NCBI GenBank assembly: GCA_963786765.1 | Contig: CAWBAJ010000022.1 | Span: forward strand, 42,297 to 74,296 | Reading direction: 5' to 3' | Source of the DNA: an uncultured Actinomycetota bacterium | GTDB lineage: Bacteria; Actinomycetota; Actinomycetes; Actinomycetales; Kineosporiaceae | Length of the DNA: 32,000 nucleotides | Shown: piece by piece, positions 1-16,282 of the stretch | Numbering within the stretch: the stretch's first letter is position 1 | Layout of the letters: every line of letters begins with the position of its first letter | The notes under the pieces: model-generated | The model's input: only the letters and a program-made list of their open reading frames with translations | Databases searched by the model: none | What the model was told of the DNA's origin: nothing | Made by a program: the position numbers and the translations under genes

Positions 1-215
1 CGCAGCTCGGCCGGCTCAAGACCATGATCGACGGGCTCGTCGCAAGCGGCTTCGTCACCGACCTCGCGTCGGGCAAGTTCCACCAGTCCTACGAGCAGTG
101 GAACACCGGCGCACGCAACGTGATGGCCGGCCTCGAGGGCATGAGCAGCTTCCTGCGTACCGCGGTCGCCCAGCACCAGCAGCTCGACCAGCAGCTCAGC
201 AGCTCCGTCGGCTGA
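1..215 (+). CDS. WXG100/Esx-like small T7SS substrate (5' end outside window)
   Basis: The frame is open from nt 3 to TGA 213-215 (in-window ATG at 24). The ~70 visible aa are small, helical and Gln/Ala-rich. They have a central Trp turn (SYEQWNTGARNV; W-x-x-G, not strict WxG) and end in AQHQQLDQQLSSSVG. The gene lies 43 nt upstream of, and co-oriented with, the FtsK-type T7SS ATPase. The call rests on size, composition and context. Confidence 0.5.
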   Translation, partial: QLGRLKTMIDGLVASGFVTDLASGKFHQSYEQWNTGARNVMAGLEGMSSFLRTAVAQHQQLDQQLSSSVG

Positions 216-258: not shown

Positions 259-3200
259 ATGATGCTGAGGCTGACGTTGAGGCATCCCGCGTCGGGAGCG
301 GAGGCGGACGTCGAGGTGACGGCGGAGCCGGGCAGCAGTGTCGGCTCGCTGCTTGCCGCCTCGCCGATCCCCGTCGCCGGCCGGCCCTGCTACCTCGCGC
401 GCCCGGAGGGCAGTTCTGGCTCCGTGGTCCGGCTCGACCCGGACGCGACCCTCGCCGCCGCGGGCATCACCCACGGATGTGTCGTCTCGGTCGGTGCCCC
501 GGCCGCCGTTGCGGCCGGCGGGCCGCCGGCGGCGGCCGGGGCACTCGAGATCGTCGACGGTCCCGGCCGCGGGACTCTGCACTGGGTGGCGCCCGGCCGG
601 CACGTCGTCGGCCGGGGCAACGCCGCGGATGTCCGGCTCGAGGACCTCAGCGTGTCGCGGGCGCACGCCGGGCTGGACGTCGGCGCCGATCGGGACGCCA
701 CCTCGGTCGCCGACCTCGGCTCCAGCAACGGCACCACCCTGGACGGCCGGCCGCTCGGCACGGGCCCGCTGCACGGGGGCAGCCGGATAGGGATGGGCGA
801 CACCGTCCTGCAGTGGACGCCGTTGCCGGCCCGGGCAGCGCATGCGACGCCGAGCCCGGACGGGCGCCTCGACTTCGACCGCGCCTTTGCCCCCGCACCC
901 GCTCTTCCGCGCACCCGGATCACGTTCCCCGACGCGGCCGCCGAGTCGTCGGCCCTCGTCCGGGTCCTGCTGACCGCCGGCGCGCCGCTGCTCGCCGGCG
1001 TGCTCATGGCCTGGCTGTTCCGGCAGCCGGCGATGCTGCTCTTCGCCGTGCTCGGCCCGCTCATGGCTCTCGGGCCCTACCTGGGCGATCGCCGGTCGCG
1101 GGGGCATCGCAGCCGTGAGCAGCGAGCCGTCCGGGAGCGGGCCGAGCGCGACCTCGCCGAGCACGTGCGGCGGGAGGAACACGCTCGCGCCACGCTGACC
1201 CCCGACCGCGTGCACCTCGCCGCCGCTGCCACCGGCGCCGGTCGGGGACTGTGGCCCAGAGGCGGCGAGAGCCCGCACGGCCTCGTCGTCCGGGTCGGGA
1301 CCGCGGACGCCGAGGCAATGCTGGACCTGCATGGGACGCCGTGGCCCGGCTTCCGCCCGCCCGTCCTGCGGGCGGCGCCCGTAACCGTCGACCTGCGCCG
1401 GGCCGGCGTGCTCGGCGTGGTCGGGAAGCCCCGGGACACCGCACCGCTGGTCCGCTGGCTGGTGACGCAGCTCGCCGTTCTGCGCAGCCCCGAGGACCTG
1501 ACGCTGGTCGTGCTCGCGGCCGACGACGCCGATGCCGAGGACGACCTCTCGTGGACGCGCTGGCTGCCGCATGCCGAGGTCGGCGAGACCGGCCGCGCGC
1601 CGTGCCGGATCGGCGTCACCGCGGCCACGCGCACCGCGCGGCTCACCGAGCTGACCGAGCTGATCGCCGCTCGGCGCACCGCCGCCGACGCCGGGCCGGC
1701 GGACGCGTGGGCCCAGGAGGTCGTCGTCCTGTTGCAGGGCGCCGTCGCACTGCGCCGGCTCCCTGGTATTCGCCAGGTGCTGCGCGAGGGACCCGCGGTC
1801 GGCGTCCACGCGATCTGCGTGGACCGGCAGGACCTGAACGAGTGCCACGCCCTGTGCGCCGTCGACGGCGACCGCCTCGTCCTGACGCCCAGCCGACAGG
1901 AGCCGTCCGTCGTCGTCCGTGCGGAGGGGCTCGACCTCGCAACTGCGGGCGACCTCGCGCGGTCCCTCGCGCCGATGCGCGACCGGCTGACACTGGCCGG
2001 CGCGCAGGCCGCCGTCCCGTACCCGGTGCGCTATGTCGACCTCGTCGCGATGCCCGAGCCCTCACCCGAGCACGTGCGCCAGCGGTGGTCGGCCCGGCCC
2101 GGGCCGACCACCGAGGCCGTGCTGGGCGCGGACGGCGCCGGGCGGGTGTGCGTCGACCTCGCGCGGCAGGGGCCGCACACGATGCTCGGAGGCGCCACCG
2201 GTGCCGGCAAGAGCATCCTGCTACAGACCCTGGTCACCGCGCTCCTGCTCGACAATCGCCCCGACGAGCTGAATCTCGTGCTCGTCGACTTCAAGGGCGG
2301 CAGCGCTTTCCTGCCGTTCGCGGGCTGCCCGCACGTCGTCGGCCTGATCCGCTCCACCGGGAGCACGCCCGCCGACGTGTTCGACGAGGCCGCCGCCGTC
2401 CGCGTGCTCGCCTCGGTGCGCGCGGAGGTGCGCCGCCGCGAGTCGATCCTCGCGCCCTACGGCGGCGAGCTCGACGAGTACTGGCGGGCGCGGCGCACGG
2501 ACCGCAGGCTGGCGGCGCTGCCCCGGCTCGTCATGATCTTCGACGAGTTCGCGCGGGTACTCGAGACGACCCCCGACTTCCTGCGCGAGCTCGTCAACGT
2601 CTCCGCCAAGGGCCGCTCGCTCGGCATCCACCTCGTGCTCGCGACCCAGTCGCTGCAGGGCAAGCTCTCACCGGAGCTCAAGAACAACATCGACCTGCGG
2701 ATCTCGCTGCGCCAGAACGAGGTGTCCGACAGCGTCGAGGTGCTCGGCGCACCGGACGCGGCCGGGATCCCGGGACACCTGCGAGGCCGCGGCATGATCC
2801 TCTGCACCAGGGACGAGGTGCGGCTGCCCCGGGTGTTCCAGTCGGGGTACCTCGGCGACGCTCCCCCGCGCGGCGGCGCCGTGCCCGCCCGGGTCCGTCT
2901 CGTCGACTGGCCGAGCCTCGGCGCGGACCGGCCGGAGCCGGACGACGCCTCGCGCGGTGGGGACACCGACCAGACGCTCGTGATCGCCGCGATCGAGCAG
3001 GCCGCCCGCGAGCTCGCCGTCCCCGCGCCCTCCCGGCCCCTGCTCCCACCGCTGCCCGCCGTCGTCCGCCCCGCCGACGTCGACCAGCTCGCGACGGTCG
3101 CGCCGGCGCCCACCGCCGTCCCGTTCGGCCTCGTCGACGACCCCGCCGGCCAGGCCCAGCTGCCCGCCGTCCTCGACCTGGCGGGCACCGATCGGCTCCT

Positions 3201-4605
3201 GATCGCGGGCGGTCCCCAGTCGGGTCGGACGACGGCCGCGCGTGCCCTCGTCCGCGCCCTCGCCGTCCGCTTCCGCCCCGACCGGGTACATCTCTACGTC
3301 CTCGAGCAGCACCCCGGCGGACTCGCCGACGCCGCCCGGCTTCCGCACTGCGGAGCGGTGCTCTCCCCTGCCGAGCCCGACCGGATCCGCCGGTTCGTCA
3401 TCTGGCTCGAGGGTGAGGTGCAGCGTCGCAAGTCCGCCGGATCCACCGCGGCGGCCGCGCTGCCGTGGATCGTCGTCGTGATCGACGGCTGGGAGCAGTT
3501 CGAGAACCGCAGCGACCCGACCTTCATGGAGACGTCGCTGCTGGGCCGCCTGCGCGCCGTGATCACCGCGGGGACGCCGCTCGGAGTCCACGTCGTGGCC
3601 CTCGGCGGCCAGGACCTGCTCGCGGGCAAGCTGCCGGCGCTCTTCAGCCGTCGCATCCTGCTGCCGTTCCCGCAGGAGGACGTGCGGCGTGCGCACCTCC
3701 TGCCCGGGACCCCGCGTCCGCCGCTCGTGCCGGGCCGCGGCATCGACGCGGCGACCGGCCGGCAGGTCCAGGTCGTCGACGCCGATCTGGCCGATCTGGC
3801 CGATCTGGCCGATCCGGCCGATCCGGCCGATCCGGCCGGGCTCGGCGACCTGCAGCGGCCCATCGGCGGCGCCGTGGCCGTGAGCTTCCCGAGCCTGCCC
3901 GTCGCTGTGCCGTCGCGAGAGGTCGCCCGGCCCGTCGGCGTCGCCGATACCTGGGTGCCGCTCGGCGTCGGCGGTCAGGACGTCGGTCCCGTCGGCGCCG
4001 ACCTCTTCGAGGCGGGGCCGCACCTGCTGCTGATTTCGGGACGGGCCGGCTCCGGCCGCACCACGGCGCTCGCGGCGCTCGGGGGGGCGCTGCGCCGCGC
4101 CGGTGTGGGGGTGCTGGCCGTGGCACCCCCGCGCTCGCCGCTGCCCGGGCTGCTGCCCGAGGACGACGGCGTCCGCGTGGTGAGTGGCACGACCGTCAAG
4201 GACCGTGACCTGCGGGACGCTGTCGCGGCCTTCGGGGACGGCCGGTACGCGATGCTCGTCGACGACGTCGAGCAGCTCACCGTCGTCCCCGAGCAGGACG
4301 GCTTCGCCGACCGGCCGACGGTGCTGCAGGACGTCGCCGCTCCCGGGGCGCTCGGCACCCGCGCGCTGGTGCTCGCCGGCGACGCGCTGCCCGTGCTCTC
4401 CGGCGGGCGACGGAACCTCATGCGCGTGGTCACCGAGGTGATGACGTCGGGCCGGCGGCTGCTGCTCACGCCGACGCAGCCGATGGCGGCCCGCGAGCAC
4501 GGCGTCAACCTGGAGCCCGACCAGTTCCTCGCCGGGCCGCCCGGGCGCGGCTACCTCACCGACGGCTCCGACCTGCAGCTCGTCCAGCTGGCCCTGCCCT
4601 CGTAA
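259..4605 (+). CDS. EssC/EccC-type type VII secretion ATPase (beta-grasp + FHA + 2 TM + three FtsK/SpoIIIE P-loop domains)
   Basis: 1448-aa ORF; ATG 259 is preceded by GGGGAGG (249-255). aa 1-79 look like a YukD-type beta-grasp (LTLRHPASGAEADVEVTAEPGSSVGSLL...ATLAAAGITHGCVVSVG). aa ~96-187 are an FHA domain with canonical residues (VGRGN, SVSRAH, SSNGTTLDG). Two TM helices span aa ~231-275. Walker A motifs are GGATGAGKS (nt ~2188-2214), GGPQSGRTT (~3205-3234) and GRAGSGRTT (~4035-4064). Overlapping ORFs on both strands are Arg/Pro/Gly-rich shadow frames. Confidence 0.9.
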   Translation: MMLRLTLRHPASGAEADVEVTAEPGSSVGSLLAASPIPVAGRPCYLARPEGSSGSVVRLDPDATLAAAGITHGCVVSVGAPAAVAAGGPPAAAGALEIVDGPGRGTLHWVAPGRHVVGRGNAADVRLEDLSVSRAHAGLDVGADRDATSVADLGSSNGTTLDGRPLGTGPLHGGSRIGMGDTVLQWTPLPARAAHATPSPDGRLDFDRAFAPAPALPRTRITFPDAAAESSALVRVLLTAGAPLLAGVLMAWLFRQPAMLLFAVLGPLMALGPYLGDRRSRGHRSREQRAVRERAERDLAEHVRREEHARATLTPDRVHLAAAATGAGRGLWPRGGESPHGLVVRVGTADAEAMLDLHGTPWPGFRPPVLRAAPVTVDLRRAGVLGVVGKPRDTAPLVRWLVTQLAVLRSPEDLTLVVLAADDADAEDDLSWTRWLPHAEVGETGRAPCRIGVTAATRTARLTELTELIAARRTAADAGPADAWAQEVVVLLQGAVALRRLPGIRQVLREGPAVGVHAICVDRQDLNECHALCAVDGDRLVLTPSRQEPSVVVRAEGLDLATAGDLARSLAPMRDRLTLAGAQAAVPYPVRYVDLVAMPEPSPEHVRQRWSARPGPTTEAVLGADGAGRVCVDLARQGPHTMLGGATGAGKSILLQTLVTALLLDNRPDELNLVLVDFKGGSAFLPFAGCPHVVGLIRSTGSTPADVFDEAAAVRVLASVRAEVRRRESILAPYGGELDEYWRARRTDRRLAALPRLVMIFDEFARVLETTPDFLRELVNVSAKGRSLGIHLVLATQSLQGKLSPELKNNIDLRISLRQNEVSDSVEVLGAPDAAGIPGHLRGRGMILCTRDEVRLPRVFQSGYLGDAPPRGGAVPARVRLVDWPSLGADRPEPDDASRGGDTDQTLVIAAIEQAARELAVPAPSRPLLPPLPAVVRPADVDQLATVAPAPTAVPFGLVDDPAGQAQLPAVLDLAGTDRLLIAGGPQSGRTTAARALVRALAVRFRPDRVHLYVLEQHPGGLADAARLPHCGAVLSPAEPDRIRRFVIWLEGEVQRRKSAGSTAAAALPWIVVVIDGWEQFENRSDPTFMETSLLGRLRAVITAGTPLGVHVVALGGQDLLAGKLPALFSRRILLPFPQEDVRRAHLLPGTPRPPLVPGRGIDAATGRQVQVVDADLADLADLADPADPADPAGLGDLQRPIGGAVAVSFPSLPVAVPSREVARPVGVADTWVPLGVGGQDVGPVGADLFEAGPHLLLISGRAGSGRTTALAALGGALRRAGVGVLAVAPPRSPLPGLLPEDDGVRVVSGTTVKDRDLRDAVAAFGDGRYAMLVDDVEQLTVVPEQDGFADRPTVLQDVAAPGALGTRALVLAGDALPVLSGGRRNLMRVVTEVMTSGRRLLLTPTQPMAAREHGVNLEPDQFLAGPPGRGYLTDGSDLQLVQLALPS
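3781..3834 (+). repeat. In-frame 9-bp tandem repeat, 6 units (3 x GCCGATCTG + 3 x GCCGATCCG), encoding (ADL)3(ADP)3
   Basis: Read directly: gccgatctg x3 then gccgatccg x3. It encodes ..VVD-ADLADLADLADPADPADP-AGLGDL.. in the linker between the 2nd and 3rd P-loop domains of the ATPase. Confidence 0.95.
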
Positions 4606-4608
4606 TGG

Positions 4609-5388
4609 TCAGGCCGGAAGAAGGCCGGTAAGGACGGCGGGGCCCGTCCGGGCCGGGTTGTTGTCCGGTTCCAAGGTGATGACCATTCGCGAACCAGGGT
4701 TCTGCTGCAGGTCCCAGACGGTCCACATCCTGACGTCAGCGGAGGTGCCGCCGGGCGGGATCTCGAATGAGCCCGCGGAGACGGCGTCCGGGTGCGACAC
4801 GGTGTCGTCCGTGCCGACGTACCAGCACTCGTAGTGCCCCTCCCCGTCAGGAACGGGCGAAAGGCCGCTCACGGTGAGTCGGACGGACCAGCCGTTGTCG
4901 GTGTTCTCGCCCACTGCCTCGCCGCGGGCAGGTCCGCCGTTCGGGGCCTGGAGAGCGATCGTCACGGTGGGCGGCGCGGACTGCCGGAGGGCCCAGATCC
5001 CGCCGCCGGCGGCGATCAGGACGGCGGCGGCTGCCGCCACGAGCCACGTCAGGGGACGGCGAGGGCGCCCCCGGCGCTCCGCCAGGCCCACCACGGGTGC
5101 GTCGCCGGCCTGAGCGACGGAACGGTGGACGGGCTGCTCGGCGGCTGCTTCCCGGACGGCGCGGAGCGTGCGCTCCTCGAGGCCGGGCGGCAGCTCGACA
5201 GGCGGTGCGGCCACGCCGAGGAGCGCGCGTGCCGGCCGCAACTCGCGGACCTCCTTGCGGCAGGCCTCGCAGGTCTCGAGGTGGGCGGCGAAGCGCTCGG
5301 CCTCCTGCGGGTCCAGAGCACCCAGCACCCAGGCGGCGGCGTCAGCGTGCGGGCCCGGCCCCTCGAGCTCCGGTCGCGGCTCAGACAT
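4609..5388 (-). CDS. Membrane-spanning zinc-binding (ZAS-type, RskA-like) anti-sigma factor
   Basis: The protein starts MSEPRPELEG... and carries an H-x3-C-x2-C motif (AAHLETCEACRKEV). It has one TM helix (LTWLVAAAAAVLIAAGGGIWAL) and an extracytoplasmic C-terminal domain. Start ATG 5388..5386 overlaps the sigma-gene stop (ATGTCTGA, 8-nt overlap). The 15 upstream codons in the ORF track (MACARCARACRREGS) are treated as non-coding. Confidence 0.8.
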   Translation of the reverse strand: MSEPRPELEGPGPHADAAAWVLGALDPQEAERFAAHLETCEACRKEVRELRPARALLGVAAPPVELPPGLEERTLRAVREAAAEQPVHRSVAQAGDAPVVGLAERRGRPRRPLTWLVAAAAAVLIAAGGGIWALRQSAPPTVTIALQAPNGGPARGEAVGENTDNGWSVRLTVSGLSPVPDGEGHYECWYVGTDDTVSHPDAVSAGSFEIPPGGTSADVRMWTVWDLQQNPGSRMVITLEPDNNPARTGPAVLTGLLPA

Positions 5389-5950
5389 CGAACCCTCGCG
5401 CCTGCAGGCCCGCGCGCAGCGCGCGCAGGCCATGGAACATCCGCGTCTTCACCGTTCCGAGCGGGATGCCGAGCCGCTGCGCGATCTCCGACTGGGTCAT
5501 GCCCTCGTCGTAAGCCAGCGCGAGAACCTCGCGCTGGGGCGCGCTCACGCCGTCCAGCGCCTCGCGGACGACGAGGCTGTCCATCAGCTGGTCGACGTTG
5601 TCCTCGACCGGCGGCAGGAACACGTCCTCGACAGGTCCGTGGACCCGCGACGACGGTCGTCGCCGGACGTCGGTTGCCACGCTGCGCGCGATCACGAACA
5701 GGTAGGCGCCCACGGTCCCTCGTTGCGGATCGAAACGGGAAGCCGTTCGCCAGAGCCGCACGAACGTCTCCTGCACGACCTCCTCGGCCAGCCCAGAGTC
5801 CGCCAGCAGGCGCAGGGCGAACCCGTAGATCCGTCCGGAGTAGCGCCGGAACAGCTCCGCGACGGGGGCGCCGTCGTCGCCGGCCGCCATGCGCGCGACG
5901 AGTTCGGCGTCCTCGCGTGCCAGCTGCTCTCGCGCATCCTCGCCTACCAT
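5381..5950 (-). CDS. ECF (group IV sigma-70) RNA polymerase sigma factor
   Basis: Region 2 reads ELFRRYSGRIYGFALRLLADSGLAEEVVQETFVRLWR. Region 4 HTH reads REVLALAYDEGMTQSEIAQRLGIPLGTVKTRMFHGLRALR. I chose the start at MVGEDAREQ (ATG 5950..5948); the longer ORF-track extension to 6163 is Arg/Pro/Ala-rich with no sigma similarity. Confidence 0.85.
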   Translation of the reverse strand: MVGEDAREQLAREDAELVARMAAGDDGAPVAELFRRYSGRIYGFALRLLADSGLAEEVVQETFVRLWRTASRFDPQRGTVGAYLFVIARSVATDVRRRPSSRVHGPVEDVFLPPVEDNVDQLMDSLVVREALDGVSAPQREVLALAYDEGMTQSEIAQRLGIPLGTVKTRMFHGLRALRAGLQARGFDV

Positions 5951-6095
5951 CGACACCAGGTACCAGCCTCTAGTACGAGCCGTCCGCGTCGCCCGGTTCA
6001 GTTCCGCAGCGGCCGCACCCCGGACGGTTCGTGCCAGTCTAGGCAGGGGGTACGCCCGCGGCGGGGTCGCGCGGTCGCCCGCACCAGGAGGCCTG

Positions 6096-7745
6096 ATGCC
6101 GGACGAGCAGGAACCGGGGGCGACGCCAAAACCGTTCGGTTCCGCGGCCCGTAGTCCTGGCATGAGCGCAGCAGCGAGCGCACCCGCCCTGCCCCGGGTG
6201 ATCGGCGTGAGTGACCTCGTCGTGCTCCACCAGGGCGGGTTCGCGACCGTCTACCGCGGCTACCAGCAGCGCCTCGACCGCTGGGTGGCCGTCAAGGTGA
6301 TCGGGGACGCCGAGCCGGAGCGGGTCCGAGTCCGTCGCTTCGAACGCGAATGCGCGATCATGGGGCGGTTGTCGAGCCATCCGCACGTATTGCGCGTCCA
6401 CGACAGCGGTTACCTGCACGGCGGGGCACCGTACCTCGTCACCGAGCTGTGCCTGCGCGGCTCCCTGGCCGACCGGCTCGGCCGTGAGGGCCGGCTGCCC
6501 GCCGCGGACGTGGTCGCGCTCGCGCGGGCGATCAGCGGCGTGCTGGCGGCCATGCACGCGGACGGCCTGCTTCACCGTGACGTGAAGCCGGGCAACATCC
6601 TGTTCCGCGACTCCGGCGAGCCCGTGCTCGCCGACTTCGGCCTCGCGGTGCCGCTCTCTGAATCGGAGGCCGAGCCGCGCGCCGCCAGCCCGACGTTCAC
6701 CGCGCCCGAGGCACGGGACGCGGGCAGCTGGACGCCGGCCGCCGACGTCCACGCCCTCGGGACCACACTGCGCATTGCGCTCGGTGGTACCAGCGGAACG
6801 GACCAGGACGCCGGCATGCTGCATGCGCTCGTGACCCGGATGCTCGCGCCGGACCCGTCCGCCAGGCCGACCGCCGCGGAGGTCGTCGCCGAACTCGGGG
6901 CTTCTCCCGTGACCACCAGCGGCACGGCGGACCGATCGGTGGCAGACGGCCCGTTCCCGGCCCTCCGTCCGCTGCAGGCCCCCGGCCCGCTCCCGCCCGG
7001 GTCGAGCGCCGTTATCGACGAACCGACGCAGGTGAAGGCGGCCGAGCCGCCCGATGGACGCCACTGGCCCCGTCGGGTCCCGCTCGTCGCCGCCATTCCC
7101 CTCGCCGTCCTCGTGGCGGTCGTCGCAACGTTCCTGCTGACCGGTCGGCCGGTGGGACCGGCTCCTCGTTCCGCCGCGTCCGTCGCGCCCACCGGGTTGG
7201 CACCCGCTCCCACTGCCGCTGCGCGCGGCGGCGGCACGGCCAGGACGCCGAGCGCCGCGCCGTCGGGTTCGCCCGCCGCCTCGTCGCCCGCCACCACCGC
7301 GGGTGACACCGCACCGGCCGGGTACCGATGGGTGGCGGCGGCGCAGGGACTGCGGGTGGCCGTGCCGCAGCGCTGGCCCCTGCACCCCGTACCCGGCACC
7401 GCGGAGCTGCGCGCCGTCGATCCGCAGCACCCGGCGCGGTTCGTCCAGGTCGGCGGTTACCGCCCGGGGCACACCAGCCAGCTGGCACGGGTGCGCGGGT
7501 ACGCCTCGACCGAGAGCGCGGGATACCGGCAGATCCACCTCGAGCAGGTCGGCTACGGCGCCTCGCCGGACGCCGTCGACTGGGAGTACATCTACCTGGC
7601 CGGCGGCGCGGACCGGCATGCGGAGGGCCGGTACTGGCGGCTGGGCGGCGCCGAGTACGTCGTGTATGCGAGTGCACCCGCGGCGGACTGGTCCGGAATG
7701 CGACGCGTGTTCGCCGTCCTCGTCGCGACGGCACGCCCGCACTGA
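6096..7745 (+). CDS. Transmembrane Hanks-type Ser/Thr protein kinase with extracytoplasmic C-terminal domain
   Basis: ATG 6096 is preceded by AGGAG (6086-6090). Kinase motifs are GGFATVY, VAVKV, HRDVKPGNILF, DFGLA and SPTFTAPE. A TM helix (VPLVAAIPLAVLVAVVATFLL) is followed by an Ala/Pro/Ser linker. The ~140-aa outer domain begins GLRVAVPQRWPL. Divergent from the ECF sigma gene. Confidence 0.85.
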   Translation: MPDEQEPGATPKPFGSAARSPGMSAAASAPALPRVIGVSDLVVLHQGGFATVYRGYQQRLDRWVAVKVIGDAEPERVRVRRFERECAIMGRLSSHPHVLRVHDSGYLHGGAPYLVTELCLRGSLADRLGREGRLPAADVVALARAISGVLAAMHADGLLHRDVKPGNILFRDSGEPVLADFGLAVPLSESEAEPRAASPTFTAPEARDAGSWTPAADVHALGTTLRIALGGTSGTDQDAGMLHALVTRMLAPDPSARPTAAEVVAELGASPVTTSGTADRSVADGPFPALRPLQAPGPLPPGSSAVIDEPTQVKAAEPPDGRHWPRRVPLVAAIPLAVLVAVVATFLLTGRPVGPAPRSAASVAPTGLAPAPTAAARGGGTARTPSAAPSGSPAASSPATTAGDTAPAGYRWVAAAQGLRVAVPQRWPLHPVPGTAELRAVDPQHPARFVQVGGYRPGHTSQLARVRGYASTESAGYRQIHLEQVGYGASPDAVDWEYIYLAGGADRHAEGRYWRLGGAEYVVYASAPAADWSGMRRVFAVLVATARPH

Positions 7746-7942
7746 GCATTCCTCCCGGTCGGCCCGCATTTACTGTCCGCGGCGGGGGCACAAAGAATGC
7801 GGAGCCGCTCGCCGAGCGCGTGAACCGATCCACGCGGGCGGGGCGGCGTAGAAGCTTTCGACAGGCCGCCTGCAGACGTTTCGGTGGCCGCACGAAACCA
7901 CACCGCACGAGTCGACGCGACATTCACGAGAGGACGGCGGTA

Positions 7943-8260
7943 ATGGCCACCTCCTTCGGATGCAATCCCCCCGCGGCGGTTCGAGCGGCCGGCGAGCTCG
8001 CCGCGATCCGGCAGGACGTGGCGAGCGCCGGGCAGCTCGACTCCGGATCGGGCGTCACCGGTTCCGACCGCATCGAGGCGGCGCTGCACGCGTTCTTCAC
8101 GGACTCGACGCAGAGCCGGCAGAACCTCGAGCACCTGCTCGACCGGGCCGTCGGAATGCTCCGCGGCCTCGCGACCGGCAGCACCGACCTGGACCGCAAC
8201 CTCGCTACGGCTCTGACGCCCGGCCGCACGACGGTCGCCGGTCCCGGCAGCCCGCGTTAG
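7943..8260 (+). CDS. Small (105 aa) predicted helical protein, first gene of the Rhs toxin operon; candidate T7SS targeting/partner protein
   Basis: ATG 7943 with GAGAGGA ~10 nt upstream. GC3 is high in this frame. There is no signal peptide or TM helix. The sequence is Ala/Leu/Asp-rich (..AAVRAAGELAAIRQDVASAG..RIEAALHAFFTDSTQSRQNLEHLLDRAVGMLRGLATGSTDLDRNLATAL..). The function is inferred from position only. Confidence 0.6.
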   Translation: MATSFGCNPPAAVRAAGELAAIRQDVASAGQLDSGSGVTGSDRIEAALHAFFTDSTQSRQNLEHLLDRAVGMLRGLATGSTDLDRNLATALTPGRTTVAGPGSPR

Positions 8261-8284
8261 CCCCCGCTTGGAAGAGAGGCAGCC

Positions 8285-8998
8285 GTGACCACCTCCACGA
8301 TCCTCCCCGCTGCGGTGATCGGATTCTCGCTGCGCGTCCCCGAGAGCTGGTACGAGTTCGACATCTGGCGGGCCACCCGCACCCGACACCTACCCCGCCT
8401 CGTCGAGGAGCGGGTGGCGCGGGTGCCGGAGCTGGCCCCTCGGGCGCAGGCCCTGGTGCGCCTCCTGCGCAGGGTCGCGGAGGATGCCGAGCGCGCCGGG
8501 GCGGTCTACTGCGCGGCTCTGGCCGAGCCGGTCGGCGTGGCAGGCTTCCTTACGGCGTCCTGCACCGTCCTGCAGACGCCGGGACCGGACGACCCGGCGC
8601 AGCGGAGCGTCGGGGCCATCGCCGCCGGCATCCCCGCGACCGGCGCGGCGCTCGGCGAACCGGGCGCACGCGAGGTGGTCCTCCTCGAGCACCCGGCAGG
8701 CCGCGGCGTCCGGGTCCGTGAGATCGCCCTCCTGGACGGCTGCGCCGACGGCGACGGCGGGACTCCGACCGGGCCGACGGAGCACGTCGTCATGCACACG
8801 CTGCTGCCCTCGCCCGGGTGGTCCGATGCACGCCGCGGCAGCTACGTCGTCGACCTCGTGCTCGCCAGCCCCCAGGTGCAGCTCGCCGCCCCGATGCTCG
8901 ACCTCTTCGACGTGATCAGCGACACCTTCCGCTGGATCCCCGCGCCTGAAGTGGACGAGCAGGAGACGGCTGCAGCGGGCGAAGGACGGGCGTCATGA
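8285..8998 (+). CDS. Hypothetical 237-aa protein coupled to the Rhs toxin gene; candidate chaperone/adaptor
   Basis: GTG 8285 with GAGAGG 6 nt upstream. Stop TGA 8996-8998 overlaps the Rhs ATG 8995 (ATGA). The N-terminus has an h-x-h-x-VP-x-x-W strand motif (GFSLRVPESWYEFDIW), which I associate with PsbP/Mog1/DUF1795-type folds. There is no signal peptide or TM helix. Confidence 0.6.
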   Translation: MTTSTILPAAVIGFSLRVPESWYEFDIWRATRTRHLPRLVEERVARVPELAPRAQALVRLLRRVAEDAERAGAVYCAALAEPVGVAGFLTASCTVLQTPGPDDPAQRSVGAIAAGIPATGAALGEPGAREVVLLEHPAGRGVRVREIALLDGCADGDGGTPTGPTEHVVMHTLLPSPGWSDARRGSYVVDLVLASPQVQLAAPMLDLFDVISDTFRWIPAPEVDEQETAAAGEGRAS

Positions 8999-11900
8999 AC
9001 GACTGGAGCGTCCTCGGTCTGCCCGGCGACCCGACCCCCGGCGACCCCGCGGGCACGAGCGCACTGGCCGCCCGGCTGCGCCGCGAGGCCGACCGGGCTC
9101 ACAGCAACGACGTCCGGTTGCGGGCGATCGCCGCCGGCAGCAGCGACCTGGCTCTGCTCGGCGACTACGCACCGAAGTACCGCGACGCGCTCGCCGAACT
9201 ACCGGGCGAGGTCGGCAAGCTCCAGAAGGCGTTCTGCGGTGCGGGGGACGCGCTCGCGACGTACGCCGACCAGCTGAGCCAGGCCAAGGCGCGCGCGGCC
9301 ACAGCCCTGCAGGAGGGCGAGGACGCCGACGCGCGCTACCACGGCGCGATGAACGAGCTCCGGGCCGCGCTGCCAGGCCCGCGGTCCGCGCTGCTCTCCA
9401 GCGGGCTGGGCCTCACCCCGCTCGCGCTCGCCGCCGCAACCGCCGGGCTCGACCCGGGCACGACGGCGACCGTGCAGTCCGCGGCGGCGCGCGCCCGCAC
9501 CGCTGCAGCCGATCGGGACGCCGCCCGCAGCCTGGCCGATCAGGCTGCGGCGCTGCGCGGGGACGCCGAGGCGCGCTGCGTCGACGGCGTCAACGCCGCC
9601 CTCGACGGCAGCGGCATCAAGGACAAGACCTGGTGGGAGCGAGCCTGGGACCGCGCGACGGCACCCTTCAGCTCGTGGGACGCGTTCGTCTCCCTGTGCC
9701 GAACTGTCGCGATCATCGCGGGGACGGTCGCGCTGTTCATCTCCGGCCCGATCGGCCTGGCGCTCGTCGCGATCGCCCTGATCGCGAGCGCGGTCGTCGT
9801 GCAGGACACGGTGACGAAGTTCGCCCAGGGCCGGGCGACGCTCCTGGACGTCGGACTGGACACCCTCGGCCTGATCCCGGGCGAGGAGGGGGTCGGCGAC
9901 CTCGCCCGGCTCGGTCCCGGCGCGCTCGGCCTGGCCCGCGACCTGCCGTCCGCCGGCCGCGCCGTCACCGGGCTGCTGAGGAGCGGCCGCGCGGCGCTGC
10001 CCGCGATCCGCGACGTCCTCGGTGACCTGCGCCAGAACGCGATCCCGGCAGCCAAGCGGTTCCTGAAGATCGACCCGATCGACATGGTCACCGGCGAGAT
10101 GGTGATGCAGGAGACCGACGTCCGGCTGCCCGGAACCCTGCCGCTGGTGCTGAGCCGGACCCACGCCTCCTCCTACCGTGCCGGGCGCTGGTTCGGCCGG
10201 TCCTGGACGTCGACCCTCGACCAGCGGCTCGAGGTCGACGGCGGCGGGGTGCTCTTCGCCGGCGAGGACGGCGTGCTGCTCGCGTTCGCACTGCCTGCCG
10301 AGGGCGCCGCCGTCGAGCCGTACGAGGGGCCACGTCTGCAGCTGAGCCGTGAGGGCGAGCACTACCGGCTGCTCGACCCGCAGACCGGACGAACGCTGAC
10401 CTTCGCGGCCGCCGGCGCCGAGCCCGGCGTGCTGCCGCTGCGGTCGATCAAGAACAGGAACGGCGACCGGATCGAGATCTCCTACGACGTCACCGGCATG
10501 CCCGTCGTCGTGCGGCACAGCGGCGGCTACGCCGTCGGTGTCGACACCTCAGCCGGGCTCGTGACGGGGCTGCGGCTGCTCGGGGCCGACCGGGACGGCG
10601 ACGTCGTCCTCGCGCGCTACGACTACGACGGCGCCGGCCGGCTGATCGCCGTCACGGACACCTCCGGCGTGGCGCTGCGGCTGGAGTACGACCCGGCCGG
10701 CCGGATCGTCGGCTGGCACGACCGCATCGGCACGTCGTACCGGTACGGCTACGACGCCCGGGGGCGCGTCGTGTGGACGTCCGGCTCGGCGGGGTGCCTG
10801 GACGGCACGCTGCGCTACGACGAGGAGCAGCGGACGACGACCGTCGTCGACTCCCTCGGCGCCACCTGGAAGTACGCCTACAACGAGGACCTGCAGGTGG
10901 TCCGCGAGGTCGACCCGCTCGGGGGCGTGACCCGGTACGCGTGGGATCGCTACGACCGGCTGCTGATGCACGAGGACGCGCTCGGCGCCGTCACCCGGCA
11001 CACGTACGACGAGGCCGGCGACCTGATCCGGATCACCCGCCCCGACGGCGCCACGTTCGCCGTCAGCTACGACGAGCACCACCTCCCCGCCGTCGTCAGA
11101 CGGCCCGACGGCGGCGTCGAGCGACGCGTGCACAGCAGCGCGGGGAACCTCGTCGCGGTCACCGATCCTGCCGGCGCCGCCACCCGGTTCGGGTACGACG
11201 AGCGCGAGCACCTGGCAAGCGTCACGGACGCCGCCGGCGGCCTCACGGTCGTCAGGTGTGACGCCGCCGGGCTGCCGTTCGCCGTCACCGATCCGGCCGG
11301 CCGGACGTCGCGGTGCTCCCGCGACCGGGCCGGACGCGTCACGGCGGTGACGGACCCCGTCGGCCGCACCACGCTCTTCACGTGGACGGACGCCGGCCAG
11401 CCGGCCTCACGCACGCTGCCGTCCGGCCGGACCGAGCGGTGGGACCACGACGCCGAGGGCAACCTCATCGGTCACACCGACCCGGACGGGCACCGCACGA
11501 CCGTCGAGTACACGTGGTTCGACCTGCCGGCGTCGGTCACCGATCCCGACGGGGCGCGCCGCGTCTTCGGCTACGACACCGAGCTCCGCCTCGTCGCCGT
11601 CACGGACGCCGCCGGCCTCGTCTGGCGCTACGAGCGCGACGCCGCCGGCCGGATCGTCCGTGAGCTCGACCTCGACGGCCGCGAGCTGCGCTACGAGCGG
11701 GACCCGGTGGGCCGGCTGACGGCGCAGGTGAACGGCGCCGGGGAGCAGGTCTCGTACCGGCGCGACGTGCTCGGCCGGGTGGTGATGCGGGACCATGACG
11801 GGCTCACGGACGCGTTCGGCTACGACGCGATGGGCCGGCTGCTCCGGGCGACCACGGCCGATGCGGAACTGGGGTTCGAGTACGACCCGGCGGGCCGGGT

Positions 11901-13461
11901 GCTCACCGAGACGGTCGGGGGCCGGGCCCTGACGTCGAGCTACGACGGGGCGGGACGCCGGGTGCGGCGCAAAACGCCCTCTGGTGTCGTCAGCGCATGG
12001 ACGTTCGACGAGGCCTCGCAGCCGCTCGGCCTCGTCGCAGGACCGGGACGGCTCGAGTTCGGGCACGACGCCGGCGGCCGCGAGTCGTCGATGCGGCTGG
12101 GCGAGGCGCTGGTGACGCGCACATTCGACGCCGACGGGCGGCTGCATGCGCAGCGGGTCTCGGTCGGCGAGCGGCGTCTCGTCGACCGGGCCTACCGGTA
12201 CCGCGGCGACGGGTCCCTCACGGGGATCGACGATCCTCTCGCCGGTTCGGTGGCGTTCGACCTGGATCCCGTCGGGCGCATCACGGCCGCCTCGTCCGGA
12301 GGCTCGCGCGAGCGTTTCGCCTACGACGTCGCCGGGCGGCCGCTGGCCGGCGGCGTGCCGTCGTACGAGGGCACCCGAATTCGGCGGGTGGGCAGGACCA
12401 GCTACGGCTACGACTGCCAGGGCCGGATGATCTGGCGGCGGACCCGGACCCTCGACGGGCAGCGCCGGGAGTGGACGTACGCCTGGGACGCCCTCGACCG
12501 CCTCGTCGCCGTCACGACACCGGGGGGCGGTCGCTGGCGCTACCTCTACGACGCCCTCGGGCGGCGGGTCGGCAAGCGGCGCACGGACGGCGAGGGCCGC
12601 GTGGTCGAGCGCGTCGACTACACCTGGGACGGCGCGGTGCTGGCCGAACAGGTACGCCGGTTCCCGGGTCGCGCCACGGCCACCACGTGGGACTGGCGGC
12701 CCGGCACCTTCCGGCCCGTCTCCCAGACCGACCGGGTCGGACTGACGGTCGACGACGTCGCGGACGCGCCGCAGTCATGGGTCGACGAGCAGTTCCACGC
12801 CATCGTCACCGACCTCGTCGGGACACCCACCCAGCTCGTGGACGCCGAGGGTCGCGTCGCCTGGCAGGCCCGGACGTCGCTCTGGGGCGCGCACATCGGC
12901 GAGGGCGCGGACGGCGTCCTGTCGTGCCCGCTGCGCTTTCCCGGCCAGATCGCGGACGACGAGACGGGCCTGCATTACAACTACTTCCGCTACTACGACC
13001 CGGACAGCGGCCGGTACGTCTCGGCCGACCCCATCGGCCTCCTTGGCGGCATCGACCCACACGCCTACGTCCGCAACCCGACGACATGGACAGACCCGCT
13101 CGGCCTGGCGCCGTGCGACGTGGCCGGAGGTGCCGCGAACGCGGCCGACGGCGTCAGACTTGCCCAGCAGCTCACATCGGAGGAGGCCGGCTCGCTGTTC
13201 ACCGGCACGGGTGGCCTCCGGGAGGACGTGATGGCGTCGTCGCGGCTGATCATTCCCGGTGTCGACCTCGACAACTCGGAAGTCATCGCGGAGCTGACCT
13301 CCGACGGGAGCAGGATCGAGGACTGGGGCAAGTACGCCACACCGTCGTTCCGCTCGCCCTCAGGAAAGTTCCAGGTGCACTTCTACTACAACGACACGAC
13401 CAGCACCGTCAATTACAACATCGACTACAAAGCGAAGTTCCAGGGAGGCGGCAGGCGGTGA
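8995..13461 (+). CDS. Rhs/YD-repeat polymorphic toxin with N-terminal T7SS-substrate-like helical domain, TM helices and 117-aa variable C-terminal toxin domain
   Basis: GAAGGA lies 8 nt upstream of ATG 8995. aa 1-~130 are helical with no Sec/Tat signal (MNDWSVLGLPGDPTPGDPAGTSALAARLRREADR...GDALATYADQLSQAKARA). This matches my memory of the 'putative T7SS-secreted protein' N-terminal domain of actinobacterial toxins. A hydrophobic stretch spans aa 231-269 (nt 9685-9801). A DUF6531-like segment reads DPIDMVTGEMVMQETDVRLPGTLPLVLSRTHASSY..GRSWTS. There are many YD repeats (YDYDGAGRL, YDPAGRIV, YGYDARGRV...). The Rhs core end reads PLRFPGQIADDETGLHYNYFRYYDPDSGRYVSADPIGLLGG..NPTTWTDPLGL. The unique tail occupies aa 1372-1488 (nt 13108-13458). 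Confidence 0.92.
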   Translation: MNDWSVLGLPGDPTPGDPAGTSALAARLRREADRAHSNDVRLRAIAAGSSDLALLGDYAPKYRDALAELPGEVGKLQKAFCGAGDALATYADQLSQAKARAATALQEGEDADARYHGAMNELRAALPGPRSALLSSGLGLTPLALAAATAGLDPGTTATVQSAAARARTAAADRDAARSLADQAAALRGDAEARCVDGVNAALDGSGIKDKTWWERAWDRATAPFSSWDAFVSLCRTVAIIAGTVALFISGPIGLALVAIALIASAVVVQDTVTKFAQGRATLLDVGLDTLGLIPGEEGVGDLARLGPGALGLARDLPSAGRAVTGLLRSGRAALPAIRDVLGDLRQNAIPAAKRFLKIDPIDMVTGEMVMQETDVRLPGTLPLVLSRTHASSYRAGRWFGRSWTSTLDQRLEVDGGGVLFAGEDGVLLAFALPAEGAAVEPYEGPRLQLSREGEHYRLLDPQTGRTLTFAAAGAEPGVLPLRSIKNRNGDRIEISYDVTGMPVVVRHSGGYAVGVDTSAGLVTGLRLLGADRDGDVVLARYDYDGAGRLIAVTDTSGVALRLEYDPAGRIVGWHDRIGTSYRYGYDARGRVVWTSGSAGCLDGTLRYDEEQRTTTVVDSLGATWKYAYNEDLQVVREVDPLGGVTRYAWDRYDRLLMHEDALGAVTRHTYDEAGDLIRITRPDGATFAVSYDEHHLPAVVRRPDGGVERRVHSSAGNLVAVTDPAGAATRFGYDEREHLASVTDAAGGLTVVRCDAAGLPFAVTDPAGRTSRCSRDRAGRVTAVTDPVGRTTLFTWTDAGQPASRTLPSGRTERWDHDAEGNLIGHTDPDGHRTTVEYTWFDLPASVTDPDGARRVFGYDTELRLVAVTDAAGLVWRYERDAAGRIVRELDLDGRELRYERDPVGRLTAQVNGAGEQVSYRRDVLGRVVMRDHDGLTDAFGYDAMGRLLRATTADAELGFEYDPAGRVLTETVGGRALTSSYDGAGRRVRRKTPSGVVSAWTFDEASQPLGLVAGPGRLEFGHDAGGRESSMRLGEALVTRTFDADGRLHAQRVSVGERRLVDRAYRYRGDGSLTGIDDPLAGSVAFDLDPVGRITAASSGGSRERFAYDVAGRPLAGGVPSYEGTRIRRVGRTSYGYDCQGRMIWRRTRTLDGQRREWTYAWDALDRLVAVTTPGGGRWRYLYDALGRRVGKRRTDGEGRVVERVDYTWDGAVLAEQVRRFPGRATATTWDWRPGTFRPVSQTDRVGLTVDDVADAPQSWVDEQFHAIVTDLVGTPTQLVDAEGRVAWQARTSLWGAHIGEGADGVLSCPLRFPGQIADDETGLHYNYFRYYDPDSGRYVSADPIGLLGGIDPHAYVRNPTTWTDPLGLAPCDVAGGAANAADGVRLAQQLTSEEAGSLFTGTGGLREDVMASSRLIIPGVDLDNSEVIAELTSDGSRIEDWGKYATPSFRSPSGKFQVHFYYNDTTSTVNYNIDYKAKFQGGGRR

Positions 13462-13823
13462 GAGTCCGTTGCACCAGACTTGTGAGCCCACTCGACGGCT
13501 CGGAGCAGACGAGGAGCCTGTGGGTCGAGGTCGGGCGTGAGTACCAGGTGCTCAGCGTGCTGGTGGACCCTCGCGGGCGTGTCCGAGTTCAGGTTCTCGA
13601 CGACGACAGGGCACCCAGCTACTGGCCCGCCGAGATGTTCGAGACGACGGACGAGAGGGTCCCCGCCAACTGGGTGGCACGGCTGGACGGTCGCGGTGTC
13701 CTGAAGCTGGCTCCCACGTCCTGGTTGCGCGCAGGATTCTGGGAGGACTATTTCGACGGACGTCCGGACGCGATGGCACAGTTCGAGCGTGAACTGCCCG
13801 CCATACTCCAGAGCGAGACGTGA
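13458..13823 (+). CDS. Candidate cognate immunity protein (121 aa)
   Basis: GTG 13458 overlaps the Rhs stop TGA 13459-13461 (GTGA), with GGAGG at 13445-13449. An alternative GTG lies at 13482. The product is acidic and cytoplasmic, with no TM helix or signal peptide (..SLWVEVGREYQVLSVLVDPRGRVRVQVLDDDRAPSYWPAEMFETTDERVPANWVARL..GFWEDYFDG..). It sits exactly where Rhs immunity genes sit. The 487 upstream codons of the ORF-track entry 11997..13823 are a shadow frame of the Rhs gene. Confidence 0.7.
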   Translation: MRVRCTRLVSPLDGSEQTRSLWVEVGREYQVLSVLVDPRGRVRVQVLDDDRAPSYWPAEMFETTDERVPANWVARLDGRGVLKLAPTSWLRAGFWEDYFDGRPDAMAQFERELPAILQSET

Positions 13824-14022
13824 GCCGATCGCTTCGGCAGGGGGCGACACCGCGGGGACCCTGGCCCACGGCTGGTTCGGGCGGCTACACGCCGAGTCGC
13901 CGTTGCCCAGCCCCTCGGCGAGTCGGCTCAGGGTCGATCGCCAGAGTCAGGCACGGGCCGCGATCCCGGGGATCCCGGCACGGCGCATCATCATCTCGTT
14001 CGCGTTGTGGCCGACCTCATGG

Positions 14023-14242
14023 TCAGCTGCAGGCCAGCTCGGCCCGGCGGTGGCAGTACATGCCATCGAAGGCGTCGTGGACCTGGCGGCCTTGGTCCAG
14101 CAGCAGTGCGCCCCCGATGTTGTTCGCTGTCGATCGCCACGGTGACCCGACCCAGGCCGCGCTCGCGCGGCACCAGGTCCGTCTTGGAGCCCTTCTCTAA
14201 CCGTCCCACGCTCGCACGGCTCAGCTGCCTGTCCAGGAACAT
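14023..14242 (-). pseudogene. Short frameshifted ORF of unknown family (possible HTH remnant)
   Basis: Two adjacent minus-strand frames both show high GC3. The first reads MFLDRQLSRASVGRLEKGSKTDLVPRERGLGRVTVAIDSE. After a 1-nt shift near 14118 the second reads NNIGGALLLDQGRQVHDAFDGMYCHRRAELACS*. LSRASVGRLEKG resembles an XRE-type recognition helix, but no family was recognised. Confidence 0.25.
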
Positions 14243-16194: not shown

Positions 16195-16282
16195 CCACGC
16201 TCTTGCCGCGATCCGTGGCGGTCCTGCACGGACCGCTCGCCGGGGGACATGCCATAGCAGGTGCTCGTCGAGCGGTGTCGGG

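Follow-up and report, generated by a model that had tools for sequence, protein, structure and literature searches.

Proteins in which N-terminal domains of the T7SS (type VII secretion system) type are combined with RHS repeats were catalogued in actinobacteria by Zhang et al. (2012; PMC3482391), and Rhs genes located beside T7SSa, T7SSb, T7SSc and T7SSd loci were noted in 2023-2024 (PMC10327511, PMC11217815). A firmicute parallel is LrhA of Listeria, which is associated with an essC8 T7SSb, LxpABC and LrhI and is known from bioinformatic evidence alone (Bowran et al., 2023; PMC10327511). The T7SSd of Actinomycetota (Olsenella, Bifidobacterium), with the components TsdA, TsdC, TsdD, TsdH as well as TsdI, has an Rhs gene beside it in Olsenella uli, and in the same study Rhs toxins were linked genetically with T7SSa and T7SSb (Garrett, Higginson & Palmer, 2024; PMC11217815). 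In Schaalia (Actinomycetales), the Esr kinase/FHA threat-sensing pathway has been shown to be linked to Esx at the genome level, in many genomes through fusion of the FHA protein to EccC, and to control the export of particular Esx substrates post-translationally and in a kinase-dependent manner (Wang et al., 2026, preprint; PMC13622651). The linkage of Rhs genes to T7SSs, systems with FHA-EccC and a kinase (T7SSd), and the coupling of Esr to Esx are thus already published from genomics. Here, we describe an intact four-gene operon encoding a 1488-residue Rhs protein at positions 7943 to 13823 of a 32,000-nucleotide stretch of DNA from an uncultured, high-GC soil bacterium of the Kineosporiaceae (contig CAWBAJ010000022.1, positions 42,297 to 74,296, assembly GCA_963786765.1). 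The whole of this stretch is referred to as the window, and all positions are given relative to its first nucleotide.

The region probably encodes a polymorphic Rhs toxin and an immunity protein that are dedicated to a type VII-like secretion system. This reading is carried by the gene structure and domain content of the operon, by its conserved synteny and by the co-inheritance of the toxin and immunity genes. What appears to be new is the combination of a T7SS_signal-type helical bundle, a transmembrane (TM) hairpin, a partner protein with a PsbP fold and a 105-residue partner on an Rhs cage, in Frankiales, Kineosporiales, Streptosporangiales and Pseudonocardiales. A first-pass annotation of the window, made from the sequence and its open reading frames (ORFs), had called export of such a protein essentially uncharacterised biology; this is correct with regard to experiments, but overstated with regard to the linkage, which was catalogued in 2012 and in 2023-2024 (PMC3482391, PMC10327511, PMC11217815). 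The operon and the parts of the Rhs protein are as follows:

7943..8260, + strand: h105, a 105-residue protein (ATG at 7943, TAG ending at 8260); first gene of the operon and candidate targeting factor
8285..8998, + strand: h237, a 237-residue cytosolic alpha/beta protein (GTG start); putative chaperone of the toxin's TM hairpin
8995..13461, + strand: Rhs toxin gene, 1488 residues (ATG at 8995 within an ATGA overlap; stop codon at 13459-13461)
8995..9639, + strand: Rhs residues 1-215, a three-helix bundle and putative, divergent trafficking domain of the T7SS_signal (PF21725) type
9679..9837, + strand: Rhs residues ~229-281, conserved TM hairpin (Kyte-Doolittle means over 19 residues of 2.1-2.5)
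10072..13107, + strand: Rhs residues 360-1371, DUF6531 plug region, YD/RHS-repeat cage and Rhs-associated core
13108..13461, + strand: Rhs residues 1372-1488, C-terminal toxin domain
13458..13823, + strand: 121-residue cytosolic immunity protein (GTG at 13458 in a GTGA overlap with the Rhs stop codon)

The coordinates given for the four ORFs in the first-pass annotation, including the 24-nt gap, the ATGA at 8995 and the GTGA at 13458, all hold to the base. The gap separates h105 from the 237-residue ORF and contains the ribosome-binding stretch GGAAGAGAGG, and the GTG codon of the immunity gene is preceded by GGAGG, 10 nt upstream. The G+C content of the window is 74%, and real genes are marked by a G+C content at third codon positions (GC3) of at least 0.85. 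The GC3 values are of the coding type in all four ORFs of the operon, with 0.90, 0.90 and 0.93 for the first three and 0.79 for the immunity gene. A scan of positions 7600-14500 detected neither a sigma-70-type promoter nor an intrinsic terminator, a result that is uninformative at such a G+C content.

The layout recalls that of LrhA, which also contains DUF6531 and RHS repeats and has no Sec signal; its gene lies beside that of EssC, after genes for a WXG100 protein and two further small proteins and ahead of an immunity gene (PMC10327511). However, the Listeria locus is a canonical firmicute T7SSb in which the partners are all small helical proteins, whereas one of the partners here is an alpha/beta protein of 237 residues. 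Moreover, the immunity protein of LrhA is membrane-anchored, implying a target in the envelope, whereas the immunity protein of the window is cytosolic and the toxin carries a TM hairpin.

The Rhs protein and its putative immunity partner

Judged by its domain content, the 1488-residue protein can be classified as a bona fide Rhs cage toxin. The families expected in the first-pass annotation, DUF6531, RHS_repeat and Rhs_assc_core, were all matched in a scan against Pfam and NCBIfam. DUF6531 was located to residues 360-431, while the RHS repeats were recognized in 15 stretches by PF05593 (E=4e-86) and in 14 stretches by TIGR01643 (E=1e-82), with an additional match to the Pfam family RHS. The Rhs-associated core (TIGR03696) spans residues 1297-1371 and scored 82 bits, as compared to a cut-off of 32.5. 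Solved Rhs cores from the T6SS (type VI secretion system) and from Tc toxins in the PDB align to the core region (E=2e-25), in which residues 1345-1371 read RYYDPDSGRY...DPIGL...NPTTWTDPLGL, with DPLGL at positions 1367-1371. The terminus of the core, NPTTWTDPLGL followed by APC, corresponds to the aspartyl autoprotease site of TseI and TccC3 (motif comparison for TseI in PMC7170923). At the entrance to the cage, PIDMVTGEM (residues 361-369) resembles the N-cleavage signature of TseI, PVSMVTGEELL (PVxxVTGEE), in that the proline, the VTG and the first glutamate are kept. In agreement with the first reading of the protein, no PAAR or VgrG match was obtained in the scan, and there is no N-terminal signal of the Sec/Tat type, since the first hydrophobic stretch begins only at residue 229.

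The first ~300 residues of the protein, here called the N-module, form a conserved unit with 50-58% identity in 17 of 18 database proteins and 37% in the remaining one. In the AlphaFold2 model, helices were predicted at residues 18-46, 59-125 and 154-206 (predicted local distance difference test, pLDDT, 85-95). The N-terminal helical domain is accordingly ~205-215 residues long and not ~130, as had been estimated at first, and it is followed by the conserved TM hairpin. The hairpin consists of two strongly hydrophobic, near-invariant helices (residues ~229-281) that are joined by SGPIG in a FISGPIGLAL turn, and it was modelled with low confidence when taken alone. Next comes a GLIPG motif and then a variable linker that extends to residue ~360.

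We scanned the window copy of the N-module and 18 homologues with 32-58% identity to it against the T7SS_signal family (PF21725), which was matched at E<=0.01 by 13 of the 19 proteins (best E=3e-8). Two homologues are named "WXG100 family type VII secretion target" in their source records. Because of the 13 matching proteins, homology of the N-module to the T7SS_signal family is supported transitively, through the homologues. The T7SS-type N-terminal domain named in the first-pass annotation is thereby recovered for the family, while the window copy itself falls below the threshold. Most of the database homologues are 440-500 residues long and end in Tox-REase-2, Ntox50 or DUF6782 (metallopeptidase). 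Since it is found both on Rhs proteins and on these shorter proteins with differing toxin ends, the N-module can be described, from sequence comparisons, as a swappable trafficking module.

For the C-terminal domain (residues 1372-1488; 117 residues), there is no Pfam, NCBIfam or meaningful PDB match. A word-indexed homologue search gave two fragments of 76 residues only. The family came to light in an exhaustive HMMER search, with 601 cluster representatives at E<=1e-3 and 303 at E<=1e-10. The domain ends at most 30 residues from the C-terminus of the carrier in ~94% of the matches. The carriers are ~65 to 4421 residues long, the shortest of them probably being gene fragments, and include DUF6531-Rhs proteins, SpvB/TcdB-type Rhs proteins and a T7SS_signal protein. 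Six residues are invariant (W72, K74, H90, Y92, N94 and K107). The source names of the homologues are uninformative ("RHS repeat-associated protein"), and a nuclease-type chemistry is only a guess. A match of the toxin profile to the DLG guanylate kinase (E=0.008) covers the N-terminal linker helices only and was treated as spurious. The domain belongs to a widespread family that is described in no database, and the toxin-immunity family appears to be new.

The 121-residue protein was predicted to have neither a TM helix nor a signal peptide. Homologues are encoded directly after two unrelated proteins that carry this toxin domain, namely an Rhs protein from Actinoplanes (L029; 38% identity, E=6e-23) and a metagenomic T7SS_signal toxin (L030; 41% identity, E=1e-27), which strengthens its initial assignment as the immunity gene. 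The toxin and the 121-residue immunity gene travel together on three different delivery backbones. The G+C content of the toxin-immunity cassette is 0.65, as compared to 0.74 for the rest of the Rhs gene. Based on the shared adjacency on other carriers and the lower G+C content of the cassette, the two genes have the hallmarks of a toxin and its cognate immunity gene that are exchanged horizontally as a pair and that have their target in the cytoplasm.

Conserved neighbourhood and partner proteins

One genome per species was scanned for the N-module, which resulted in 28 loci (numbered with the prefix L), the closest of which is 90% identical. The hosts are Frankia, Protofrankia, Kineosporia, Nonomuraea and Agrococcus, along with metagenome-assembled genomes (MAGs) of Pseudonocardiaceae, Kineosporiaceae and other Actinomycetota. 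Twenty-one of the 28 loci encode the N-module as a fusion with an Rhs cage. The usual gene order is kinase (not in all loci), h105, h237, WXG100, toxin, one or more variable small genes and EccC, with the EccC gene usually located on the opposite strand, 0.6-5.6 kb downstream of the toxin. The window and L001 deviate from this order in that the pair of WXG100 and EccC genes has moved upstream. An EccC match was identified within ~6 kb in 13 of the 16 Rhs loci that have at least 5 kb of flanking sequence, of which 12 were substantial (239-1478 residues aligned) and one was a remnant of 54 residues (L005). The WXG100 gene is located directly upstream in 17 of the 24 loci with at least 2 kb of upstream sequence; of these 24, 16 contain h237 and 13 contain h105. 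The expectation that homologues of the N-module would be found near T7SS ATPases is thereby borne out. Clustering of all ORFs from the 28 loci (20-kb loci) revealed no other family in more than three loci, and no component similar to EccB, EccD, EccE, mycosin or EssB.

In the window, the following genes precede the operon:

3..215, + strand: 3' 70 codons of a WXG100 (EsxA/TsdA-like) gene that is cut by the left window edge (Pfam WXG100, E=2e-5 on the fragment)
259..4605, + strand: EccC/EssC-type T7SS ATPase, 1448 residues (Pfam FtsK_SpoIIIE 2.6e-42, FHA 2e-10)
4609..5433, - strand: zf-HC2 anti-sigma factor; one TM helix, extracytoplasmic domain (Pfam zf-HC2 2.8e-7)
5381..5956, - strand: extracytoplasmic function (ECF) sigma factor (Pfam Sigma70_r2, Sigma70_r4 and Sigma70_ECF; start candidates at 5956 and 5950)
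6096..7745 (likeliest extent), + strand: membrane Ser/Thr protein kinase, TsdD/EsrE-like (Pfam Pkinase 2.6e-34; AGGAGG before the ATG at 6096)

The h105 gene was recovered upstream of the h237 gene in 14 loci by tblastn and, by clustering, also in L018. The protein has no family match above threshold and no meaningful sequence match in the PDB, while DUF6507 was touched weakly by six of 16 orthologues (best E=0.012). That h105 might be a recognizable WXG100 paralogue was considered and dropped (hhalign probability <1%).

The h237 protein was identified in 18 of the 28 loci, with 43-50% identity in the related loci and 84% in L001, whatever the C-terminal toxin. It has no match in Pfam or NCBIfam, no sequence match in the PDB and no sequence match to DUF1795. 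Called a helper in the first-pass annotation, it is modelled by AlphaFold2 as an alpha/beta sandwich (pLDDT 81; predicted template modelling score, pTM, 0.78) and not as a helical protein. A Foldseek search against the PDB gave the Jonesia protein 3lyd, MTC28 and LpqN (E=6e-5 to 3e-4, probability 1.0), followed by PsbP. With PsbP included, these matches span E=6e-5 to 5e-3 (probability 0.99-1.0) and support a fold of the PsbP/Mog1/LpqN class. The protein lacks both a TM helix and a signal peptide and is therefore predicted to be cytosolic, unlike LpqN and MTC28. In L012, h237 precedes a non-Rhs toxin of 448 residues that carries the same N-module, and it thus tracks the N-module and not the cage. 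DUF1795 (Eag) is placed in the PsbP fold class, also on the basis of the structural match of h237 to the Eag chaperone SciW at rank 37. Its fold class, its cytosolic location, its translational coupling to the toxin and its co-occurrence with the hairpin suggest that h237 may have a role similar to that of Eag chaperones, shielding the TM hairpin, with a structural link to the Eag proteins that is weak. It is from synteny only that we infer helper roles for h105 and h237.

T6SS effectors of the Rhs type with a prePAAR motif and transmembrane domains (prePAAR-TMD) and their Eag chaperones (RhsA/EagR, Tse6/EagT6, SciW; PDB 6xrb) share several features with this locus: a cage toxin with TM helices in the N-terminal delivery region, a small cytosolic protein, here with a predicted fold of the PsbP/Mog1/DUF1795 class, encoded directly upstream, a DUF6531-type PVxxxxGE motif and the DPxGL motif for C-terminal autocleavage. 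In contrast to these effectors, there is no PAAR, VgrG or Hcp here, the host is monoderm, h237 falls outside DUF1795 by sequence, and only one N-cleavage glutamate is present. The LXG toxins of the T7SSb with their Lap and Ltc (DUF4176) partners also have small partner genes upstream (PMC10801868, PMC9600955, PMC12478183), and in T7SSb toxins a middle region is served by Ltc chaperones dedicated to it (PMC12478183). However, the middle region of LXG toxins is a disordered amphipathic helix, whereas a TM hairpin and a whole Rhs cage are found here; there is no LXG motif or LXG Pfam match, and by sequence neither h105 nor h237 is related to the Lap and Ltc proteins.

The EccC/EssC-type ATPase and the WXG100 gene that had been noted upstream of the operon were both confirmed by Pfam and NCBIfam, and the ATPase was found to have an N-terminal FHA domain as well. 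It is composed of an N-terminal segment of ~90 residues, the FHA domain (residues 97-185), two TM helices (residues ~231-276) and three P-loop FtsK/SpoIIIE domains. The NCBIfam models T7_EssCb_Firm (1.4e-96), EccCa (1.3e-83) and EccCb (4e-69) were all matched under their equivalog cut-offs, with the best match being to the firmicute EssC model (324 bits, cut-off 778). The FHA match (PF00498, E=2e-10) covers residues 116-180, and the phosphothreonine-binding residues GR, SxxH (S-R-A-H) and NG are kept in ...VGRGNAADVRLEDLSVSRAHAG...SSNGT.... An FHA domain is also present in the ATPase orthologues of L006 and L015. Residues 1-95 of the ATPase (window 259-543) gave a faint match to the ubiquitin-like YukD/EsaB (E=0.1, 13.8 bits), and a ubiquitin-like component may be fused to the ATPase here. 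The T7SSd has been reported without a separate ubiquitin-like gene (PMC11217815). There is one WXG100 gene per locus, with conserved W-N-x-G and C-terminal HxxxDxxL motifs; over its 70 residues, the fragment in the window shows 100% identity to the C-terminal part of the 97-residue orthologue in L001, and the homologue in L014 scored 38 bits against a cut-off of 27.3.

Located between the ATPase gene and the toxin operon are the kinase gene and the ECF sigma/anti-sigma pair. The kinase contains a kinase domain, one TM helix (residues 394-425 of the long ORF) and a C-terminal extracytoplasmic domain of ~180 residues (7206-7742), which has no family match and could provide the sensor input of the system. 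In 8 related loci, the helper genes are flanked by kinase homologues that score >90 bits; at E<=1e-4, there are 11 such loci. Homologues to the ECF sigma factor flank the cluster in L001, L006, L020 and L028, of which L001 and L006 also have the zf-HC2 anti-sigma factor, and the pair may serve as the transcriptional switch of the cluster.

In its parts, the locus resembles the T7SSd: the ATPase is EssC-like and retains GR, SxxH and NG in an N-terminal FHA domain, there is a single WXG100 gene and an adjacent membrane Ser/Thr kinase, and there is no separate ubiquitin-like gene. It differs in that TsdI, a giant secreted protein with immunoglobulin (Ig) repeats and a C-terminal TM helix, and TsdH, a small protein with a single TM helix, were detected neither in the window nor in the 10-kb flanks of the 28 loci, although they could be encoded at another place in the genome. 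Furthermore, the hosts of the T7SSd are gut and oral Coriobacteriia and Bifidobacteria, whereas those identified here are soil and symbiotic Frankiales, Kineosporiales, Streptosporangiales and Pseudonocardiales, and neither a TM hairpin in a toxin N-module nor a PsbP-fold protein in the operon has been described for the T7SSd.

In L014 (Actinomycetales MAG, 13-8392) and L015 (Kineosporia aurantiaca, 137-8646), four genes are located directly upstream of the kinase-h105-h237-WXG100-Rhs block. They code for a protein with fn3 repeats, an AAA+ ATPase of the MoxR type, a DUF58 protein and a transglutaminase, and were on these grounds ruled out as Ecc components. Similarities to the Esr-Esx system include these fn3/Ig, MoxR, DUF58 and transglutaminase genes as well as a Ser/Thr kinase and an FHA domain linked to EccC. 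The window, in contrast, has no genes for MoxR, vWA, transglutaminase or beta-propeller sensor proteins, and the effectors AesA and AesB of Esr-Esx are helical/disordered proteins and not Rhs toxins with immunity genes (PMC13622651).

Proposed mechanism and alternatives

We infer T7SS-dependent export, helper roles, a function for the hairpin, kinase control and toxin activity, which could be connected as follows. The N-module, with its T7SS_signal-type three-helix bundle and two-helix TM hairpin, would be the delivery part of the protein. In the cytoplasm of the producer, the helical bundle would be presented to the FHA-bearing EccC/EssC ATPase, and the WXG100 protein and h105 may take part in the presentation, by analogy with the Lap/WXG100 targeting factors of LXG toxins. 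The PsbP/Eag-like h237 would shield the hairpin, comparable to the Eag chaperones of T6SS prePAAR-TMD Rhs effectors or the Ltc chaperones of the T7SSb. The Rhs cage would enclose the 117-residue toxin, which would be released by the aspartyl autoprotease between DPLGL and the following alanine. After export, insertion of the hairpin into the target membrane would allow the toxin to reach its cytoplasmic target, while the cytosolic 121-residue protein would protect the producer and its kin by neutralizing the toxin. Phosphorylation probably gates secretion, in that the membrane Ser/Thr kinase would act either on the FHA domain of the ATPase or by way of it, and transcription may be under the control of the adjacent ECF sigma/anti-sigma pair.

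Taken in full, this scheme is tentative: in a lineage of soil-dwelling and symbiotic actinobacteria, a reduced T7SS made up of FHA-EccC, a single WXG100 protein and a kinase, and gated by phosphorylation, would export a whole Rhs cage with its hairpin kept soluble by a PsbP/Eag-like chaperone. It would have converged independently on the solution by which the T6SS prePAAR-TMD/Eag systems bring Rhs toxins across a target membrane, and the payload would have a toxin fold undescribed in databases. If the idea of a chaperoned hairpin is true, type VI and type VII systems have converged on the same delivery route for Rhs proteins. The six gene families make up a compact and conserved test system that is present in cultured strains of Kineosporia, Nonomuraea and Frankia, in which one may ask about the export of Rhs cages by a T7SS, the roles of the hairpin and of the PsbP-like partner, and kinase-FHA gating. 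The analysis also flags a toxin-immunity family of at least 600 sequence clusters without a counterpart in Pfam, NCBIfam or the PDB.

Several results weigh against a T7SS-dedicated Rhs toxin of this kind. A literature search found no experimental T7SS export of any Rhs protein, and how a folded Rhs cage of ~110 kDa would pass through a T7SS is hard to explain. Homologues to EccB, EccD, EccE, mycosin, EssA, EssB, EsaA, TsdH and TsdI were not seen in the window or in the 10-kb flanks, and the translocon is therefore incomplete as far as visible at the locus. The window copy of the N-module remains below the threshold of PF21725 (15 bits, E=0.023, cut-off 27). Reading of residues 1-215 identified no WXG, LXG or YxxxD/E motif, with DWxVLxLxGDPxPGDP and GDYAPK being conserved instead, and there was no LXG match in Pfam. 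A profile-profile comparison of the N-module to the WXG100 family of the cluster gave a probability of <1%, and a Foldseek search of the N-module model against the PDB retrieved only BAR-like or generic long helical bundles (E ~0.1), with no T7SS substrate in the top 50, which neither supports nor refutes an LXG- or WXG-like fold for the modelled domain. As for the partners, h105 shows no detectable kinship to the Lap proteins or to the WXG100 protein of the cluster (hhalign probability <1% for the latter), the best structural matches of h237 are secreted lipoproteins of unrelated function, and the match of h237 to the T6SS Eag chaperone SciW is weak (E=0.11, probability 0.47, rank 37). Finally, GEM replaces GEE at the entrance to the cage. 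The second glutamate, mutation of which abolished N-terminal cleavage in TseI and PSPTO_5438 (PMC7170923), is thus missing, and N-terminal processing is for this reason uncertain.

Some of these observations would fit an explanation in which the neighbouring ATPase has no part in exporting the Rhs protein, the N-module being a membrane anchor that is inserted otherwise or the protein being released by lysis, with the synteny reflecting only shared regulation or a shared genomic island. A complete T7SS membrane complex is not visible at the locus, the N-domain of the window is under the family threshold, EccC is absent from three Rhs loci with at least 6.6 kb of downstream sequence (L010, L022 and L024), and the additional N-module toxins of Frankia sp. 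Cr3 (L007, L009 and L013) lie away from helpers and ATPase. We nevertheless consider this very unlikely. Given a two-helix hairpin and no signal peptide, insertion by Sec/YidC would be expected to leave both the bundle and the cage in the cytoplasm. The synteny of ATPase, WXG100 and toxin genes is, moreover, retained across at least five named genera and several MAG lineages at the family or order level despite rearrangements of the gene order, and homologues of the N-module match the T7SS_signal family. For h237 considered separately, it is possible, if somewhat doubtful, that the protein is not a hairpin chaperone but an ATPase-docking adaptor similar to EspG or EsaE, a structural or regulatory part of the T7SS, or a second immunity protein directed against the hairpin. 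The closest structures are LpqN, MTC28 and PsbP-type proteins and not Eag chaperones, and conservation irrespective of the C-terminal toxin fits any role linked to the N-module or to the machine equally well. The cytosolic location, which distinguishes h237 from LpqN and MTC28, argues for the chaperone role, as does the position of its gene directly upstream of the toxin and translationally coupled to it by the ATGA overlap. In addition, h237 follows the hairpin-bearing module onto the non-Rhs toxin of L012, and the PsbP/DUF1795 fold class is the one that the T6SS uses for the chaperoning of TMDs.

The purpose of the system may also be viewed differently. Instead of serving competition between bacteria, the module could be a weapon used in defence or host interaction, for instance in an Esr/Esx-type response to epibiotic Patescibacteria or, several of the host genera being plant symbionts, as a toxin against eukaryotic cells. 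Frankia and Protofrankia are root-nodule symbionts. The fn3, MoxR, DUF58, transglutaminase and kinase genes upstream in the Kineosporia and Actinomycetales MAG loci are hallmark parts of Esr (PMC13622651) and point in the same direction. However, the window has no MoxR, vWA or transglutaminase genes, and a coupled cytosolic immunity gene that travels with the toxin domain is a signature of toxins able to hit the kin of the producer. A defence or host-interaction role is for this locus unlikely, and the two uses are not mutually exclusive. An antibacterial Rhs toxin associated with a type VII-like system is the reading that we prefer.

Variant loci and flanking regions

A few loci deviate from the common organization. 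In L005 (Protofrankia coriariae), two overlapping ORFs (10001-14411) take the place of a single Rhs gene, and EccC (16998-17494) is a short C-terminal remnant with a tblastn match of 54 residues in an ORF of 115 residues; this locus appears to be decaying in the symbiont. Ten tandem paralogous ORFs of one family, coding for 73-175 residues, were identified downstream of the Rhs gene in L022 (Kineosporia babensis; 16155-20840, - strand). They could represent an array of orphan immunity or toxin-tip cassettes, or decayed fragments of a repeat gene. In Frankia sp. Cr3, extra copies of the N-module (L007, L009 and L013) are located at contig ends, with no h105, h237, WXG100 or EccC gene in up to 10 kb upstream, which suggests that they are dispersed additional toxins depending on helpers encoded elsewhere.

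From the toxin tip onward, the G+C content of the window falls from ~0.74 to 0.62-0.68 (13100-20000), and this stretch looks like an island or a recombination boundary. It contains genes for a 220-residue protein without a recognized family (14401-15063, - strand), the N-terminus of which is hydrophobic and signal-peptide-like, a DinB_2 protein, an ArsR-type regulator and a MetE-like protein. Further downstream, positions 21149-27006 hold an ordinary cluster for the catabolism of aromatic compounds that is unrelated to the Rhs and T7SS genes, with genes for a flavin adenine dinucleotide (FAD) monooxygenase, an IclR regulator, protocatechuate 3,4-dioxygenase and a fusion of a hydrolase with carboxymuconolactone decarboxylase.

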